Shown: piece by piece, positions 31,256-44,160 of the stretch | Position numbering within the stretch: the stretch's first letter is position 1 | Layout of the letters: every line of letters starts with the position of its first letter | Assembly (NCBI GenBank): GCA_027334565.1 | Contig: DAHWUP010000002.1 | Coordinates: 82,240 to 146,239, forward strand | Reading direction: 5' to 3' | DNA from: Candidatus Levyibacteriota bacterium | GTDB lineage: Bacteria; Patescibacteriota; Microgenomatia; Levybacterales; UBA12049 | Length of the DNA: 64,000 nucleotides | Program-made: the position numbers and the translations under genes | The notes under the pieces: model-generated | Databases searched by the model: none | The model's input: the letters and a program-made list of their open reading frames with translations, nothing else | What the model was told of the DNA's origin: nothing

Positions 31256-31636
31256 ATGAAGATATTGTACTTATTGCGAGGAAAAGTAAAAGAAGGAAAA
31301 AAAAGAGGAAAACGTCTGGGATTTCCCACCGCTAATATTACCTTGCATAAAAAAATTCCCGAAGGAATTTATGCTTCTAAAGTCACGATCGATAAACAGG
31401 ATTATTTGGCGGCTACTTTTATCGGCGCCTCCAAAACATTCAGAGAAACGGAACTTAAATGTGAAAGTTTTATTTTAAATTTCGATAACGAAATCTACGG
31501 TAAATGGATCACGGTTAAGCTAATTAAAAAAGTCCGCAGAAATAAAAAATTCTCTTCGGTTAAGAAACTTATTGATCAAATGGAAGTCGACATATCGAAT
31601 ATCCTGATGTTTTTTTCAAAAACTAAAACAAATTAG
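31256..31636 (+). CDS. monofunctional riboflavin kinase (RibF C-terminal-domain type)
   Basis: GKKRGKRLGFPTANI..PEGIYASKV..ELKCESFILNFDNEIYGKWITVKLIKKVR. Confidence 0.75.
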   Translation: MKILYLLRGKVKEGKKRGKRLGFPTANITLHKKIPEGIYASKVTIDKQDYLAATFIGASKTFRETELKCESFILNFDNEIYGKWITVKLIKKVRRNKKFSSVKKLIDQMEVDISNILMFFSKTKTN

Positions 31637-38078: not shown

Positions 38079-38954
38079 CTAAAGGCTGACAACTTGGGGA
38101 ATAATCTTTTTTCCGAAAATATCAAGTGGTTTAATTTTTTCGACTCCGCTAATGCTGTAAATAACCTGATCAATCCCCGCTTGCCCAAGCTGCATGCATT
38201 CGTGGATTACCTCATCCGGATTAATATCCTCACCGTCTAAGTGGGAAATAACGGTTTTTTCTATCTCTTCATAATTTCTGCCTACTTCTTCACAATGCTT
38301 TTGTAAAACATCGAGTTTGTGATTTAACTCTTCAATGCCTGCCCTTGCGAACAGATTACAGGCATCGGCATATTGCGCTACCAAACGAAGAGTTTTTTTC
38401 TCACCACCGCCGCCTACCAAAATGGGAGGATGAGGTTTTTGTAAGGCTTGCGGACTATTCAACGGATGTTCCAAATGATAATGTTTGCCTTTAAAAGGCT
38501 TACTATCCCCCGACCACATGCGCTGAAAAATTTGCAGGGTTTCCTCCAATCTTTCGAAGCGTTCCTTAAGCGGAGGAAAATTAAAACCAAGGGCTTTAGA
38601 TTCCTGTTCATTCCATGCCGCACCGATACCCAAAACCGCTCTTCCCCCACTCAAAACATCCAGGGCCGTTACCGCTTTGACCAAGAGAGCGGGATCACGG
38701 TAAATCACACCGGTCACCATAGTCCCCATTTTAACTTTTTTGGTCAAACCGGCGATATAACCTAAAGTCGTATATGCTTCGAGCATCGGCTCTTCGGGAG
38801 CTCCGACATAACCGATTTGAAAGAAATGATCCATCACCCAAACGCTATAAAAACCGTTTTTGTCTGCCGAAACCGCGATGTCCTTAAGCAGTTCTCCGAT
38901 CTTCGCATCCCCCCCGGTCCAGGTAAATTTATTGATTTGAAGGCCAATTTTCAT
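38079..38954 (-). CDS. LLM-class (luciferase-like) flavin/F420-type oxidoreductase
   Basis: FYSVWVMDHF..; LDVLSGGRAVLGIGAAW. Confidence 0.7.
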   Translation of the reverse strand: MKIGLQINKFTWTGGDAKIGELLKDIAVSADKNGFYSVWVMDHFFQIGYVGAPEEPMLEAYTTLGYIAGLTKKVKMGTMVTGVIYRDPALLVKAVTALDVLSGGRAVLGIGAAWNEQESKALGFNFPPLKERFERLEETLQIFQRMWSGDSKPFKGKHYHLEHPLNSPQALQKPHPPILVGGGGEKKTLRLVAQYADACNLFARAGIEELNHKLDVLQKHCEEVGRNYEEIEKTVISHLDGEDINPDEVIHECMQLGQAGIDQVIYSISGVEKIKPLDIFGKKIIPQVVSL

Positions 38955-39074: not shown

Positions 39075-40061
39075 ATGGCAAAAATTTATTACTTTTTAGG
39101 ACATGAACAATTTCACCCCGAAAAGCTGGTCGAATTTGCAAGGACCGCGGAAACTGCCGGCTTCGACGGTCTTTTTGTATCCGAACACTTCAATCCCTGG
39201 GTGGATGATAAAGGTGCTTCGGGTTTCGCGTTTTCCACCCTCGGTGCGATCGCGGCGGTAACCCAAAGGATCGAACTGATGACGGGTGTGATCACTCCTC
39301 TATTTAGATATCATCCGGCGGTGATCGCACAGGCCGCGGCTACTCTGGATCGCATATCGGGGGGTAGATTCTACCTGGGCGTTGGAACCGGAGAGTCGAT
39401 TAACGAAACGCCGCTTGGTATCGAATTCCCCAAATACACCGAACGATCGGAAAGAATGATAGAGGCGCTGAAAATCATGCGTAGATTACTTGATAAGGAA
39501 AAGTTAAGTTTTGCCGGCAACTATTACAAAACCGAGAACGTAAAGTTGTACAGCCCACCGTTACACTCGATACCGATTTTAATGGCGGCCCAAGGACCAA
39601 AATCCGCCGAACTTGCGGCCGAATATTCCGACGGCATCATCGTCAGCATAAAGGACCCCAGGGAGCAAAATGAAAAAGTTATCGTACCGGCTAATAAAAA
39701 AAGGAAACTGCTGGGGAAAGCAAAATTGACAATCGTCACAAACCGATGGACTGTTTTTGCCAAAAACGAAGAACAGGCTCTAAAAGCCCTGGCACCCTGG
39801 CGTGGTTTGCGTTCGCCCGGAAGAGACACTGCTTATGACCCCAAACTATTGCAAGAGGAGGCAGATCTACTCAACAAAAATGAAATTCTAAGTAAATATA
39901 CGGTCTTGACCTCGGCCGAGGATTATATCGATGCATATTCGCCGCTAATTACCCAGCTGAATTCGGACATCGTGGTTATTCAGACCACAACCCACGAAAA
40001 TCAAGATGAATTAATTAGAATGATCGGCAAACAGGTCCTGACAAAACTTAAAAGACTATGA
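39075..40061 (+). CDS. LLM-class oxidoreductase resembling F420-dependent glucose-6-phosphate dehydrogenase (FGD) family
   Basis: N-terminus MAKIYYFLGHEQFHPEKLVEFARTAETAGFDGLFVSEHFNPW parallels the FGD N-terminus (..GYKASAEQF.PRELVEL...AE..G.D...VSDHFQPW); LDRISGGRFYLGVGTGES. Confidence 0.65.
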   Translation: MAKIYYFLGHEQFHPEKLVEFARTAETAGFDGLFVSEHFNPWVDDKGASGFAFSTLGAIAAVTQRIELMTGVITPLFRYHPAVIAQAAATLDRISGGRFYLGVGTGESINETPLGIEFPKYTERSERMIEALKIMRRLLDKEKLSFAGNYYKTENVKLYSPPLHSIPILMAAQGPKSAELAAEYSDGIIVSIKDPREQNEKVIVPANKKRKLLGKAKLTIVTNRWTVFAKNEEQALKALAPWRGLRSPGRDTAYDPKLLQEEADLLNKNEILSKYTVLTSAEDYIDAYSPLITQLNSDIVVIQTTTHENQDELIRMIGKQVLTKLKRL

Positions 40062-40063
40062 TT

Positions 40064-41629
40064 TTATGACTCACTATATCCGGGAAAGAAGTCGGTGATA
40101 ATTCTATTGTTCTCTACTCCGGCATTTCTAAGAGTCGACTTAAAATTCTCAACCATCAGCTGAGGTCCCGAAATATAAAAAATCCTGTTAGGAGAATCCG
40201 GCACTATTTGTTTGATGTTTTGTTCGGTTATATGCCCTCCGACCCCCTGCCAATCCGACGGGATACGACTGGTATCGGTTAAAACAAATATGCTTTTTAC
40301 ACCGTTTAACCTTGCCCTTTCGAATAAATCGGAATAGATGATATCTTCCCTGGTCCGGTTGGCAAAAATCAAAACAATGTCAACCCGCATGTTCCGATCG
40401 ACGATATATTGAATCATGCTCCTAAACGGAGCTATTCCTACTCCTCCGGCGATGAATACTAACGGTTTCTTTAAATCTTTTGGAAGAACAAAATCCCCAG
40501 AAACCTGTGAAGCAATGATCTTTCCTCCCTGATTTAATGAAATAAGTTCTTTTTTATAACTGCTCGGTGGGCTGTAAAATTTAACAATCATCGAAAGTTT
40601 GTTTTCCGTCGGTGAAGAGGAGATACTAAAATATCTTCTGTTCCCCCTTGAATCTTCGTTCTTGTGAGCGAGGGTCCATTCCAAATACTGTCCGGGGATG
40701 AAGGCAAAACCCGGTTCTTTATCAAATATAAATTCGAAGGTATCACGACTTAATTGTATCCTTTGTCTTAAATAAAGTACCATCCTCGACGTCGGACTAA
40801 TAATATAAGAAAAAACATTGCCCAAAACCAATGCCAATTCCGGAGTGAAGGTATATGTCAATCTTAATGAAGGGGTCGCATATAAAAATGCGACCAGATA
40901 GGCAAAATAGTTTCTTTTTTGCCTGGTGTTAGGTGAAGTCAACGGTTCGGTAAACATTACAAACGTAAAGAAAAACAACGCCGAATCCAAAACGTTTAAC
41001 CGCCAAAGCGAAATGACGGAAGTTAAATTCCCCCCCCTTATAAATGAGCCCGCGGCGATGACCACCAAGTACAAAGACAAGAAATTGAATATCATATCTT
41101 CTCTTTGCATTTTCCTTACAATCAAAAGTCCTCCAAAGAAAACGAAAGGGAGCATCACCGGAGTTCCCACCCACCATGTTGCTGAGTGCTCAGGTGAAAG
41201 TAAGGCTATCGCGGCAACGGAAACCGCAGCCGGATTAAAAATATGTCGTTTGTCTATCGTCAAAAGATATTTTGAAGCCATCGCGACTACCGACGCGGCT
41301 ATGATATATGGCAAACTTAAAGGATATTTAACCGGGACAATCAACGCAAGAATCAACGCAGTGATATAGACCGATTCCACATTGGGTACGGCATTAAAAA
41401 ATTTCGCAAAAATATAATTGGAAACAAATCCCGCAATTACCGCTGCAAAGACACTAATCGTGATATCCAAAGGATTATAGCTCAAGATTTTAAGAAAGCT
41501 AAGAATTATGGCCATTACTATCAAAAAAATTAGATAGTACAACGTCAACCTGTACATGGTTATTCTGTTTAAAAAATTATCGATTGTTTTCATAATATTT
41601 TTAATAAACGGTATATTTTTCAAAACCAT
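40064..41629 (-). CDS. fusion protein: RnfD/NqrB-like polytopic membrane domain plus FNR-type FAD/NAD(P)-binding oxidoreductase
   Basis: HIFNPAA and MFTEPLTSPNTRQKRNYFAYLVA (compare RnfD/NqrB FMATDPVTSPvTR..K..YG.L); C-terminal RRYFSISSSP (RxYS FAD motif), GGVGIAPF (NAD(P) motif). Confidence 0.6.
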   Translation of the reverse strand: MVLKNIPFIKNIMKTIDNFLNRITMYRLTLYYLIFLIVMAIILSFLKILSYNPLDITISVFAAVIAGFVSNYIFAKFFNAVPNVESVYITALILALIVPVKYPLSLPYIIAASVVAMASKYLLTIDKRHIFNPAAVSVAAIALLSPEHSATWWVGTPVMLPFVFFGGLLIVRKMQREDMIFNFLSLYLVVIAAGSFIRGGNLTSVISLWRLNVLDSALFFFTFVMFTEPLTSPNTRQKRNYFAYLVAFLYATPSLRLTYTFTPELALVLGNVFSYIISPTSRMVLYLRQRIQLSRDTFEFIFDKEPGFAFIPGQYLEWTLAHKNEDSRGNRRYFSISSSPTENKLSMIVKFYSPPSSYKKELISLNQGGKIIASQVSGDFVLPKDLKKPLVFIAGGVGIAPFRSMIQYIVDRNMRVDIVLIFANRTREDIIYSDLFERARLNGVKSIFVLTDTSRIPSDWQGVGGHITEQNIKQIVPDSPNRIFYISGPQLMVENFKSTLRNAGVENNRIITDFFPGYSES

Positions 41630-42335
41630 CCGTAAATATAGCCTGCTTGTCTTTGGTCACCAGGTAGCCTTCGATATTTTTCAATCCTTGCAAAAATCTT
41701 ATCCCCTTGATGCCCATTGCGAATGTCGCCGTCGCGAATCTGTCCGCGTCATAAATATCGTCGGCAATTACCGTTACCGAAGCAATTTCATTTGCTTTCT
41801 TTTTACCGATCGGATCATAAATATGCTCTCCCCTTTGGTAGTTTCCCGATGTTGCTATACCTTTTTCGGCAAGGTAAACTACTTTAATTATCTCCTTGCG
41901 GTTAAACGGATTCTGTATGCCGACACTCCACTTCTTACCCTTTTGGTTCATACCGTTTGTTTGGATATCTCCGGCTATTTCTACATAAAAATTTTTCAAA
42001 CCCTTTTTGCGTAAGATTTTTGCTCCTTGTGAAATGGCATAACCCTTGACGATGCCGGACGGATCGATTTTTTCCCCGACCTGTATATCAAAATAACCAT
42101 GGGTAACTGTTTTCGTCTCTTCGGATAACCGCAATATTTTTTTCATGATACGGCTTAACTGCAAGGTTTCTTGATTGTTATATCTTGATACTTCGCTGTC
42201 ATTTTTATATGTACTAAAAGTTTTGTCGATATAATGAAAATACGCAAAGACTTCGTTCAGGTCCTCATTCGTTACCTTCTTGTCGCATACCTCTATTATT
42301 ACCGGCATCCCCATTATCGATTTTTGTCTTTTCAT
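41601..42335 (-). CDS. apbE: FAD:protein FMN transferase (ApbE family)
   Basis: SGIVKGYAIS, ATSGNYQRGEH, HIYDPIG motifs. Confidence 0.8.
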   Translation of the reverse strand: MKRQKSIMGMPVIIEVCDKKVTNEDLNEVFAYFHYIDKTFSTYKNDSEVSRYNNQETLQLSRIMKKILRLSEETKTVTHGYFDIQVGEKIDPSGIVKGYAISQGAKILRKKGLKNFYVEIAGDIQTNGMNQKGKKWSVGIQNPFNRKEIIKVVYLAEKGIATSGNYQRGEHIYDPIGKKKANEIASVTVIADDIYDADRFATATFAMGIKGIRFLQGLKNIEGYLVTKDKQAIFTDGFEKYTVY

Positions 42336-42345
42336 ATTTTTTCAA

Positions 42346-42867
42346 TTATTTCGCCTGAGCCAGCGCGTCTGCCAAAGACTGTTGAAAGGCCTGGCTTGAA
42401 GCCGACGCCCCCGAAATTAGGTCGACATTGGCACTTTGCGCCTGAAGGGCTTCCTGCTTTAGATAGGGTAAGGCCTGGCTGTTCACGTACTGGGAAGTCG
42501 GGTTGTCGTTTGGATACTGCAGAAAGACTACATCGGTTAACCTTCCGCCCGAGACTACTGCCTGTACCTGAATATTGCCGTAGAAAGCGTCGGCAACACT
42601 ACCCGTAAAAGTTCCATCCTTATACATTCCGGATGGACTGGGAGTAGGTGTCTGGGTGGGTGCAACAGTGACCTGGGAAACGTTTGGGCCGGTTGCCTGT
42701 TGTGAAGTCCGGGATGGGGTTGGTGTTGAGGTGATTGATTGTATGGGAGTGTTTAATGCTTGGTTTTTTCCTACCACCGGCCTCTCATCTCCCCCGTGCA
42801 ACTGTCTAAATACTACAAGCAAACCGAAAATTGTCAAAACCGATGTAATCTGAAAATATTTTCTCAT
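42346..42867 (-). CDS. membrane-anchored FMN-binding-domain protein (PplA/RnfG/NqrC-like, PF04205), paralog A with PT-rich linker
   Basis: YKDGTFTGSVADAFYGNIQVQAVVSGGRLTDVVFL...DLISGASASS (flavinylation-type SGA[ST] motif). Confidence 0.7.
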   Translation of the reverse strand: MRKYFQITSVLTIFGLLVVFRQLHGGDERPVVGKNQALNTPIQSITSTPTPSRTSQQATGPNVSQVTVAPTQTPTPSPSGMYKDGTFTGSVADAFYGNIQVQAVVSGGRLTDVVFLQYPNDNPTSQYVNSQALPYLKQEALQAQSANVDLISGASASSQAFQQSLADALAQAK

Positions 42868-42929
42868 GAACTTATATTTACGAAATCAGCTTAAAATTGG
42901 TTGAAATAATCTTGTATAAATTTTAGCGA

Positions 42930-43364
42930 TTATTTCGCTTGATTTAAAGCGTCTGTCAACGAAGCAATAAAAGCCGGCGATGAAGCCGACGCCCCGGACA
43001 CAGCATCAATGTTGGCATTTTGCGCCTGAATAGCCTCCTGTTTTAGATAAGGTAGGGCCTGAGAATTGATATACTGCGAAGTCCGGTTATCGTTCGGGTA
43101 TTGCAAAAAAATCACGTCGGTTAATTTACCACCGGCTATTACAGCCTGAACCTGCATATTGCCGTAAAATGCATCTGCGATGCTGCCCGTATAGGTCCCG
43201 TCCTTATATGGACCGGCTGTTACCGAAGCTACGTTGGAAGACCCCGTACCGCTCGCAGAGCTTGAAAAGGTATTCAATAAACTACCCGTGTTTTTCATTT
43301 GTCTGACCAGCACCAAAATGACAAATGCTCCCAAAATCAGCACGCCCCGCAAATATTTTTTCAT
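42930..43364 (-). CDS. membrane-anchored FMN-binding-domain protein, paralog B
   Basis: YKDGTYTGSIADAFYGNMQVQAVIAGGKLTDVIFL...DAVSGASASS. Confidence 0.7.
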   Translation of the reverse strand: MKKYLRGVLILGAFVILVLVRQMKNTGSLLNTFSSSASGTGSSNVASVTAGPYKDGTYTGSIADAFYGNMQVQAVIAGGKLTDVIFLQYPNDNRTSQYINSQALPYLKQEAIQAQNANIDAVSGASASSPAFIASLTDALNQAK

Positions 43365-43413: not shown

Positions 43414-44160
43414 TTAACCTTCTAGTTCTTTGGCCGCGTATCTGTAATTACAAAAATCACAGTCCGGTGAACTTGGAGGTAACTGAGCGCTGTTCAAACA
43501 TTTATAGGCATTTAGGATCTCTTTCTCTACCCATGAATCATCACCGTAGTAAGGAATTATCTTTATATCGAATTCCAGTCTTGCATCAAATCTGTCAATA
43601 TCTGTTCTTCCGTTACAATATACGAAGTATCCCGTTTTGGAAACCGCAAAATCATTTTTTCTGAACAACCATTGATATACTTCCATCTGCCGCTTATAAC
43701 CGATTTGCCAATCCGCATCCAAGTTTACCTCCTCCTCTTTTGAAGTAGACTTATAATCAACAATGATAAATTCTTGCCGCGGATTTATCCAAATGTCGTC
43801 AACCCCGCCGGTAATAACAAAATTGGTATTTTTGTCTTTATAGGTTATACCTTTAAATGGATCCCTCCATTCGTTCAACTTCTCGTGTCGAAGCGGAATG
43901 GCATCGATTCCAAATTTTTTCATCAGGGGATGCTGTTCGCCTTTCTCTCGCAAAATATCAAATTCTTTTTTCAGTAATTTATCTACCGCTGAATTCAATG
44001 AAAACGGAAAACCCGGAGGTTGGGCAACACCTAATTTCCTGTCCATATAAAAACATCTTTGACAATTTAAAAAAAGGTCAAGTTTGGATCGACTTAACCG
44101 AAAGTCTCTGTCTTTTGTATACAAATTTCCTTTTCTTCTAGAATTGTAAAAGCCGGACAT
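43414..44160 (-). CDS. PD-(D/E)xK nuclease, Cas4/RecB-like with Cys cluster
   Basis: GGVDDIW..EFIIVDYKS (D..E.K core); N-terminal CQRC and C-terminal C..CDFC, the typical Cas4 4-Cys arrangement. Confidence 0.55.
   Translation of the reverse strand: MSGFYNSRRKGNLYTKDRDFRLSRSKLDLFLNCQRCFYMDRKLGVAQPPGFPFSLNSAVDKLLKKEFDILREKGEQHPLMKKFGIDAIPLRHEKLNEWRDPFKGITYKDKNTNFVITGGVDDIWINPRQEFIIVDYKSTSKEEEVNLDADWQIGYKRQMEVYQWLFRKNDFAVSKTGYFVYCNGRTDIDRFDARLEFDIKIIPYYGDDSWVEKEILNAYKCLNSAQLPPSSPDCDFCNYRYAAKELEG

Follow-up and report, generated by a model that had tools for sequence, protein, structure and literature searches.

How NAD(P)H electrons could be delivered to the cell surface in an organism without a respiratory chain or quinones is one of the questions raised by a small gene cluster of a Candidatus Levyibacteriota bacterium (contig DAHWUP010000002.1, positions 82,240 to 146,239; this stretch of 64,000 nucleotides, referred to below as the window, sits inside a 169-kb metagenomic contig). 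The listing of open reading frames (ORFs) places four co-directional ORFs close together on the minus strand of the window at nucleotides 40064–43364, which encode, in the order of transcription, two FMN_bind proteins, an ApbE-family FAD:protein FMN transferase (FAD, flavin adenine dinucleotide; FMN, flavin mononucleotide) and a protein that fuses an RnfD/NqrB-like membrane domain to an FNR-type reductase module. Our analysis indicates that these genes probably specify an NQR/RNF-like exporter that moves electrons across the membrane by means of two components, along with the enzyme for its maturation. The locus is a typical, Levybacteria-like representative, from the Candidate Phyla Radiation (CPR), of the NQR/RNF-like class, which was named in 2021 and modelled in 2024. 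An original prediction, made from the sequence alone, had described the four tightly spaced genes correctly; all of its ORFs and every motif that it quoted are present, and its domain assignments were reproduced by Pfam (FMN_bind twice, ApbE, NQR2_RnfD_RnfE and NAD_binding_1).

Méheust et al. (2021, eLife 10:e66878) define the class by a protein that has PF03116 as its N-terminal and PF00175 as its C-terminal domain and is encoded in a flavinylation gene cluster, for which ApbE and/or FMN_bind must occur no more than five genes away and at least one of them must carry a secretion signal; such systems were assigned mainly to Actinobacteria and CPR. The window protein carries the PF03116–PF00175 fusion, and directly upstream on the same strand lie ApbE and two FMN_bind genes, the products of the latter having N-terminal hydrophobic anchors. 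For a Ktedonobacter complex, an AlphaFold-Multimer model was presented by Huang et al. (2024, mSystems 9:e00375-24), who describe a membrane subunit without the NqrB/RnfD flavinylation site and suggest that the flavin site of this subunit is visited by the covalent flavin of the partner. Thus, the fusion that the original prediction did not recognise as characterised is the defining feature of a published system. An already named and characterised family would, by the prediction's own account, have refuted it; this applies by half, since the family is named and modelled, not characterised.

As the longest ORF, the fusion gene spans 521 codons, but its conserved start is the ATG at 41593 (Met13 of that ORF), which gives a gene of 40064–41593 and a protein of 509 residues. 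By sequence comparison Met13 is almost certainly the true start, because the identical database entry P0001 and nearly all listed homologues begin there, a few being called from an internal Met. The ATG at 41629 adds 12 residues (nucleotides 41594–41629) that are absent from nearly all homologues. With the start at 41593, the 29-nt overlap with apbE therefore vanishes and a 7-nt gap remains. Residues of the fusion protein are numbered from Met13 below, except where the 521-aa ORF is named.

The N-terminal domain matches Pfam NQR2_RnfD_RnfE over residues 34–153 of the 521-aa ORF (4.1e-9; 36.7 bits against a cutoff of 27.7). An AlphaFold2 model of the full-length fusion, built from a 67-sequence alignment, reached a predicted local distance difference test score (pLDDT) of 93.6 and a predicted template modelling score of 0.89. 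Since Foldseek returned only FNR-family matches for the full-length model, the N-terminal domain was modelled and searched separately (pLDDT 93.1), and it shows the RnfD/NqrB fold of ten helices arranged as two inverted five-helix repeats. Among 25 diverse members, the mean number of Lys plus Arg residues is 1.7, 0.7, 1.9, 3.7, 2.1 and 2.0 in successive inside loops and 0.2–0.4 in the outside loops, a clean alternation that therefore points to ten transmembrane (TM) helices with both termini inside. Consistent with this topology, the RnfD termini are cytoplasmic in the Clostridium tetanomorphum structure (Vitt et al. 2022).

The C-terminal part of the fusion is a complete FNR module, as had been predicted, on the evidence of Pfam, PDB sequence matches and Foldseek. 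It contains RRYFSISS (R-x-F-S; aa 319–326), GGVGIAPF (aa 383–390) and the C-terminal aromatic motif DFFPGY. On the 521-aa ORF, NAD_binding_1 (PF00175) matches residues 392–495 at 1.3e-17, and FAD_binding_6 is sub-threshold at 0.0038; no ferredoxin [2Fe-2S] domain was found in the module. The PDB sequence matches include NqrF and benzoate dioxygenase reductase, the Foldseek matches are FNR-family reductases including NqrF and SpNOX, and NCBIfam gave partial similarity to FNR-type reductases including NqrF with no equivalog. The module begins four residues past the last TM helix; this position, the charge pattern and the homology to RnfD together place it in the cytosol, in agreement with the original prediction.

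The membrane domain appears to retain one of the two flavin sites of its homologues and has lost the other. In NqrB of Vibrio cholerae, the side chains of Thr162, Asn200, Asn203 and Asp346 bind riboflavin, with backbone contacts from Gly198, Ala205 and Phe342, and the D346A mutant is defective (Hau et al. 2023); in RnfD of C. tetanomorphum, Asn124 and Asp248 have the same roles (Vitt et al. 2022). The four side-chain ligands of NqrB align with Thr78, His117, Asn120 and Glu216 of the fusion protein. Across the 67 sequences, His117, Asn120 and Pro121 are invariant, Glu216 is present in all but one (66/67), and position 78 is always Thr or Ser (Thr in 58); the family has few positions without any variation, His117 and Asn120 among them. 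When the profile is aligned to Escherichia coli RsxD, HIFNPAA falls opposite FNPAM and TEPLTSP opposite LTDPVTAS, and a profile search against the PDB pairs the same motifs with R199-NFLN-PA and ATD346PVSAS of NqrB. We found no mention of this mapping onto the riboflavin site in the available parts of Méheust et al. 2021 and Huang et al. 2024. On these alignments the domain appears to retain the cytoplasm-proximal flavin pocket.

By comparison, the covalent FMN site has no counterpart. In the hhalign alignment, RsxD residues ~143–190, with the known acceptor DGISQAT187, face a gap in the fusion protein, and NqrB residues 209–280, including Thr236, remain unaligned in the PDB profile search. 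A 12-residue extracytosolic loop is all that corresponds to the five-helix linker, which bears the covalent FMN of RnfD/NqrB and caps it (Vitt et al. 2022), and no [ST]GA[ST] motif occurs anywhere in the fusion protein. The loop includes a Trp-Trp pair that is invariant (67/67) and presumed to be the docking site for the FMN of the partner. Judged from the alignments, the covalent FMN and its cap have been lost, leaving an open outer pocket bordered by this pair.

These observations revise the part of the original prediction that had the RnfD-like domain covalently flavinylated, with the Thr of the TSP motif as the outer-face acceptor; Huang et al. 2024 likewise describe the whole family as lacking the site. 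TEPLTSP aligns with the Asp346 motif for riboflavin and not with Thr187 or Thr236, and it is not on the outer face, being located where TM8 meets the cytoplasm, with an Arg/Lys cluster right after it. By this alignment it is the acidic-residue motif of the riboflavin/Na+ site rather than a site of FMN attachment. The wider route that had been proposed, from NAD(P)H to an extracytosolic flavoprotein, agrees with the general model of the class.

Other candidate acceptors in the fusion protein were also rejected. Thr139 (HSATWW) and Thr144 (VGTP), the latter set opposite RsxD Thr187 by hhalign, could be leftover flavinylation sites, but only ~75% of the 67 sequences have Ser or Thr there, with Ile, Val, Ala, Asn and Glu also occurring, and the D-x-x-S-G-A context is missing. 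Thr219 as a cytosolic ApbE target was set aside since its motif is common to canonical RnfD/NqrB, where it is unflavinylated, and no small Gly-Ala precedes it.

A covalent flavin is predicted instead on the partner proteins. In both paralogues, an FMN_bind domain with an SGAS motif provides a second subunit, predicted to be extracytosolic, that is homologous to NqrC/RnfG and has a predicted flavinylation site. Paralogue 1 consists of an N-terminal signal-anchor MKKYLRGVLILGAFVILVLV, a Ser/Thr-rich linker and the FMN_bind domain; paralogue 2 has the same layout with a longer, Pro/Thr/Ser linker. Identity between the two is 53% over the full length; within the FMN_bind domain it is much higher and the sequences are nearly collinear. 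NCBIfam gave weak matches to RnfG and PplA. The original prediction of two paralogous, membrane-anchored proteins was right, except that it called them lipoproteins: neither contains a single cysteine, and they therefore lack a lipobox and are signal-anchored. Beyond the window, an FMN_bind gene lies upstream of the fusion in 71 of 80 related loci (single copy in 68, two copies in 3), and the loci without one are mostly contigs that end too near the fusion gene. Among 74 partners, 68 have an N-terminal, strongly hydrophobic segment preceded by Lys/Arg (an N-in signal-anchor), and 73 have the D-x-[IV]-SGA[ST] motif (SGAT in 54, SGAS in 19). From this distribution of charge, the FMN_bind domains are predicted to face outward.

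In the scheme that we infer for the bound cofactors, the direction of electron flow, the acceptor and the location of flavinylation, oxidation of NAD(P)H by the 509-aa subunit would take place in the cytosol at the FNR module with its predicted FAD, and the electron would pass on to a non-covalent flavin in the riboflavin pocket (Thr78, His117, Asn120 and Glu216) of the membrane domain. From there the electron would move to the FMN held covalently by the Ser of SGAS in either of the two membrane-anchored, outward-facing FMN_bind paralogues, FMN having been attached by ApbE. The partner flavin probably docks where true RnfD/NqrB hold their covalent FMN, in the uncapped pocket lined by Trp-Trp, and the reduced FMN_bind protein would then hand its electrons to an extracytosolic acceptor that the cluster does not encode. 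In effect, such a path would be the RnfC–RnfD–RnfG arm of Rnf run in the NADH-oxidising direction, with the FNR module replacing RnfC. In Rnf, the gap between riboflavin and the FMN of RnfD is 7.7 Å, and that between riboflavin and the cytoplasmic cluster of RnfC is 11.7 Å (Vitt et al. 2022). The same model is the one already put forward by Méheust et al. 2021 and Huang et al. 2024.

Several points weigh against this exporter model. By sequence only, the match to NqrB is weak (E 0.36), so that the residue-level mapping rests on the two concordant profile alignments and on the similarity of fold. No acceptor gene is conserved near the cluster in the census of related loci described below. The ApbE is leaderless, while its only motif-bearing substrates are predicted to face outward, which is at odds with standard extracytosolic flavinylation. 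Finally, full-text literature searches found no experimental characterisation of NQR/RNF-like systems.

Wide conservation of the cluster argues for a function. A word-indexed search with the fusion protein returned thousands of matches; the best 120 are all fusions of ~500 aa with 54–70% identity, and the names, where present, are those of RnfD-type or FNR-type proteins of Patescibacteria/Levybacteria. An exhaustive search with the N-terminal domain gave 262 clusters (at 50% identity) at E<1e-30 and 1534 at E<1e-3, and when GTDB was scanned with a single genome for each species, at least 577 loci were recovered from many CPR classes, Chloroflexota and Thermoleophilia; the FMN_bind–ApbE–fusion order is kept across all three groups. 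The closest match among the species listed is a Candidatus Levybacteria metagenome-assembled genome (MAG) with 66% identity. In one Levybacteria MAG, DAIDHK01, two copies of the fusion gene lie on different contigs (L040 and L061), one with two FMN_bind genes and ApbE, the other with one FMN_bind gene and no detectable ApbE.

In the 80 related loci, whose neighbouring ORFs were clustered all-against-all, only the three core families are conserved, which indicates that the acceptor is not encoded in the cluster; the next commonest neighbour is an ABC ATPase (18 loci). One variant may have a different partner. P0256 (L089:4573-6512), a distant relative with an N-terminal domain ~35% identical, has no ApbE or FMN_bind neighbour, and directly upstream and translationally coupled to it is a gene for a 142-aa signal-anchored Cupredoxin_1 protein, a homologue of which is also found ~2.4 kb upstream of the fusion gene in L068. 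This suggests that the P0256 variant reduces a blue-copper protein instead of a flavoprotein.

The same census bears on a first alternative, in which the same machine is an assimilatory reductase of ferric or other metal ions that feeds Fe(II) uptake and is not a general sink for reductant. Méheust et al. 2021 reported the VIT1 iron transporter for 6 of 127 clusters, one homologous locus from a CPR relative (L006/L007:272-1509) encodes, ~3 kb upstream of the cluster, an FTR1 iron permease with an Rrf2 regulator, and a CDF cation transporter is encoded ~2 kb downstream in the window and again near the cluster in L003. Across the 80 loci, by comparison, no iron-transport family is conserved and the links to iron are sporadic, and CDF is an efflux family of variable position. 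We consider a dedicated role in metal reduction possible but unlikely.

The ApbE itself raises the second alternative. It has the ApbE fold and retains the motifs ATSGNYQ (TSG-x-Y) and EHIYDP (H-[IV]-x-DP), yet has no signal peptide, lipobox or TM segment, in contrast to the N-terminal lipoprotein signal or secretion of ApbEs with extracytosolic targets. The chain opens at the first β-strand of the fold (IMGMPVIIEV) and, aligned to the solved ApbE structures of E. coli and V. cholerae, starts where the mature domain starts; the gene caller places the start at 42308, which gives 235 aa. An ApbE gene lies directly upstream of the fusion gene in ~70 related loci, and almost all of its products (L008–L087) are leaderless across CPR and Chloroflexota, as is the high-GC member L088:4126-5004. 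In almost all of the ~70 loci an in-frame stop lies only a few codons from the residue that aligns with residues 1–4 of the window ApbE, which leaves no room for a leader, and a hydrophobic stretch is absent. We found no mention of the absent leader in the available text of Méheust et al. 2021 or Huang et al. 2024, and its conservation is the sole feature here that we did not find reported in the literature. Installation of the FMNs by ApbE, as originally proposed, is hence not straightforward if it takes place outside the cell.

Known leaderless ApbEs act on cytosolic targets, such as the Klebsiella fumarate reductase, so the FMN_bind domains might face the cytoplasm; the system would then be an NAD(P)H:acceptor reductase tethered to the membrane, with no transmembrane electron transfer. 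Apart from the lack of a leader here and in nearly all ~70 loci, the evidence points the other way. Positive charges precede the hydrophobic segment of the partners (MKK..., or long Arg/Lys tails in Chloroflexota) and Pro/Thr/Ser-rich linkers follow it; a distant high-GC member has its leaderless ApbE beside a partner with a classical LAAC lipobox; the multimer model of Huang et al. 2024 sets the partner on the outer face; and the vacated FMN pocket and Trp-Trp loop lie on the outer side. This arrangement is, in our judgement, improbable.

The mismatch of a leaderless ApbE with outward-facing partners might be explained by flavinylation before or during export, by non-classical export of ApbE or by a wrong partner topology, the last being least likely, given the charge patterns. 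As a tentative and rather doubtful proposal, the ApbE of this family may act in the cytoplasm, where it would modify the C-terminal SGA[ST] of substrates of the Sec or lipoprotein type ahead of export or in its course; the chain would then cross the membrane in flavinylated form. If true, maturation by ApbE would here follow a sequence of events not described before, and cytoplasmic flavinylation would spare the FAD-export machinery needed by extracytosolic ApbEs, which suits minimal CPR genomes. The twin-arginine (Tat) route for a pre-flavinylated partner is not favoured, as a twin-arginine motif is missing from the N-termini of all 74 partners. Formation of an FMN_bind–ApbE fusion by stop-codon readthrough was ruled out because the genes are in different frames. 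No second ApbE and no further FMN_bind gene were detectable in the window.

The retained pocket is relevant to a third alternative, in which electrons flow inward or their transfer is linked, as cause or as consequence, to ion movement through the Na+/H+ channel of NqrB/RnfD, which the RnfD-like domain would have kept. Its fold is that of the ion-translocating subunit, and the acidic residue for Na+ and riboflavin binding (Asp248 in RnfD, Asp346 in NqrB) is kept as Glu216. Against this, the gating elements of Rnf/Nqr, namely the five-helix linker and the movement of NqrC/RnfG between the D/E and B subunits, are absent or reduced here, and the driving force from NAD(P)H to flavin is small. We give little credence to inward operation or ion coupling.

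A functionless, decayed remnant of a full Rnf/Nqr operon is hardly credible and is effectively refuted by conservation: although only one homologue of the membrane core of the six canonical subunits is present, with no RnfA, B, C, E or G in the window, the genes are intact and tightly spaced, and the family numbers (262 clusters at E<1e-30; at least 577 GTDB species genomes) come with strong conservation of motifs and gene order. The absence of other Rnf subunits, also part of the original prediction, was supported by phmmer, in which single E. coli sequences of RsxA, B, C, E and G had no match below E 0.3 among the ORFs from all six frames of the window; the six-subunit set of canonical Rnf/Nqr is thus incomplete within the window, and no canonical Rnf subunits were seen in the related loci either.

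Table 1. Features of the cluster and of its surroundings (nucleotide positions in the window; residues of the fusion protein counted from Met13)
Feature	Nucleotides	Strand	Details
FMN_bind paralogue 1	42930–43364	-	144 aa; Pfam FMN_bind 4.4e-7; SGAS motif
Paralogue 1, predicted flavinylation motif DAVSGAS	42987–43007	-	aa 120–126; DAVSGASASS at 42978–43007
FMN_bind paralogue 2	42346–42867	-	173 aa; Pfam FMN_bind 1.6e-7; SGAS motif
Paralogue 2, predicted flavinylation motif DLISGAS	42403–42423	-	aa 149–155; DLISGASASS at 42394–42423
ApbE-family FAD:protein FMN transferase	41601–42335	-	244 aa; Pfam ApbE 1e-44
Fusion gene, longest ORF	40064–41629	-	521 aa
RnfD/NqrB-like 10-TM domain	40790–41593	-	aa 1–268; both termini predicted cytoplasmic
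FNR-type FAD/NAD(P)H-binding module	40064–40789	-	aa 269–509
HIFNPAA	41225–41245	-	aa 117–123; aligns with NqrB R199-N-F-L-N203-P-A205
Extracytosolic loop SPEHSATWWVGT	41162–41197	-	aa 133–144; 12-residue remnant of the ~50–80-aa five-helix linker
TEPLTSP	40931–40951	-	aa 215–221; aligns with NqrB T-D346-P-V-S-A-S and RsxD T-D-P-V-T-A-S
PD-(D/E)XK (PDDEXK_1) protein	43414–44160	-	C-terminal Cys cluster
Luciferase-like oxidoreductase	39075–40061	+	Bac_luciferase/LLM
Luciferase-like oxidoreductase	38079–38954	-	Bac_luciferase/LLM
Riboflavin kinase	31256–31636	+	126 aa; Pfam Flavokinase

Conservation of the flanking genes together with the cluster is limited to close relatives. Two luciferase-like oxidoreductases dependent on flavin or F420 are encoded right next to the fusion gene on its downstream side. 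The nearer gene ends 2 nt from the fusion stop codon on the opposite strand; both are missing at the corresponding position in the relatives L003 and L005. The CDF transporter and an HD-domain protein are encoded on the same flank. Upstream, the PDDEXK_1 gene is 49 nt from the first FMN_bind gene on the same strand and holds this position in the Levybacteria-like loci L003 and L005 and not across the wider family; its adjacency is probably lineage synteny rather than a functional link. A stand-alone riboflavin kinase gene, ~8.4 kb away from the cluster, may have a bearing on the provision of flavin in a reduced genome. A scan for promoters and terminators was uninformative, with counts near those of shuffled sequence.

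By itself the locus adds little to the published class. Its use is as a clean and minimal test case for the delivery of NAD(P)H electrons to the cell surface without quinones, for the retained riboflavin pocket as an intramembrane relay, and for the maturation of an exported flavoprotein by a transferase that has no export signal. With at least 577 species genomes and hundreds of clusters at 50% identity, the family is large enough for experimental answers to hold widely in CPR and Chloroflexota.

Our comparison with known systems places the cluster closest to the NQR/RNF-like systems of the literature, with which it shares the architecture, the FMN_bind and ApbE neighbours, the CPR range, the lack of a flavinylation Thr in the membrane subunit and the proposed flow of electrons in one direction only, from NAD(P)H to an extracytosolic flavin. 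One difference is that two tandem FMN_bind paralogues are found here, whereas most related loci have one.

The RnfC–RnfD–RnfG arm of Rnf has in common with our system the RnfD fold, the riboflavin-site motifs, an RnfG-homologous FMN_bind partner on the outer face and a cytoplasmic module that is linked to NAD(H) and docks on the termini of RnfD. By comparison, the [2Fe-2S] core of RnfA/E, RnfB and RnfC are all missing here, with the FNR module in the place of RnfC, and the D-like subunit has no covalent FMN, its five-helix linker being reduced to 12 residues. The system is presumably no ferredoxin:NAD+ oxidoreductase. With Na+-NQR (NqrA–F) it shares an NqrB-like domain, an NqrC-like partner, an NqrF-like FAD/NAD module and maturation by ApbE, while the NqrF-like part lacks the ferredoxin domain and the TM helix and is fused to the NqrB-like part. 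NqrA, D and E, any sign of a quinone site and an equivalent of Thr236 are absent.

NOX and ferric reductases (FRE), for example the Streptococcus pneumoniae NOX (PDB 8qt6), similarly combine a membrane domain with a C-terminal cytosolic FNR-type dehydrogenase and move NAD(P)H electrons outward. Their membrane domains are not homologous to that of the fusion protein, since NOX uses two b-type haems in a six-helix domain and the fusion protein would use a flavin pocket in the Amt-like ten-helix RnfD fold. The flavin-based extracellular electron transfer system of Listeria (Ndh2, EetA/B, PplA and FmnB) resembles the cluster in its ApbE-flavinylated, extracytosolic FMN_bind terminal carrier and its Gram-positive-type envelope. 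The Listeria route passes through the quinone pool, whereas the route proposed here would be quinone-independent, and FmnB, the Listeria ApbE, is a secreted lipoprotein fed by a dedicated FAD-export ECF transporter, whereas the ApbE of the window is leaderless.

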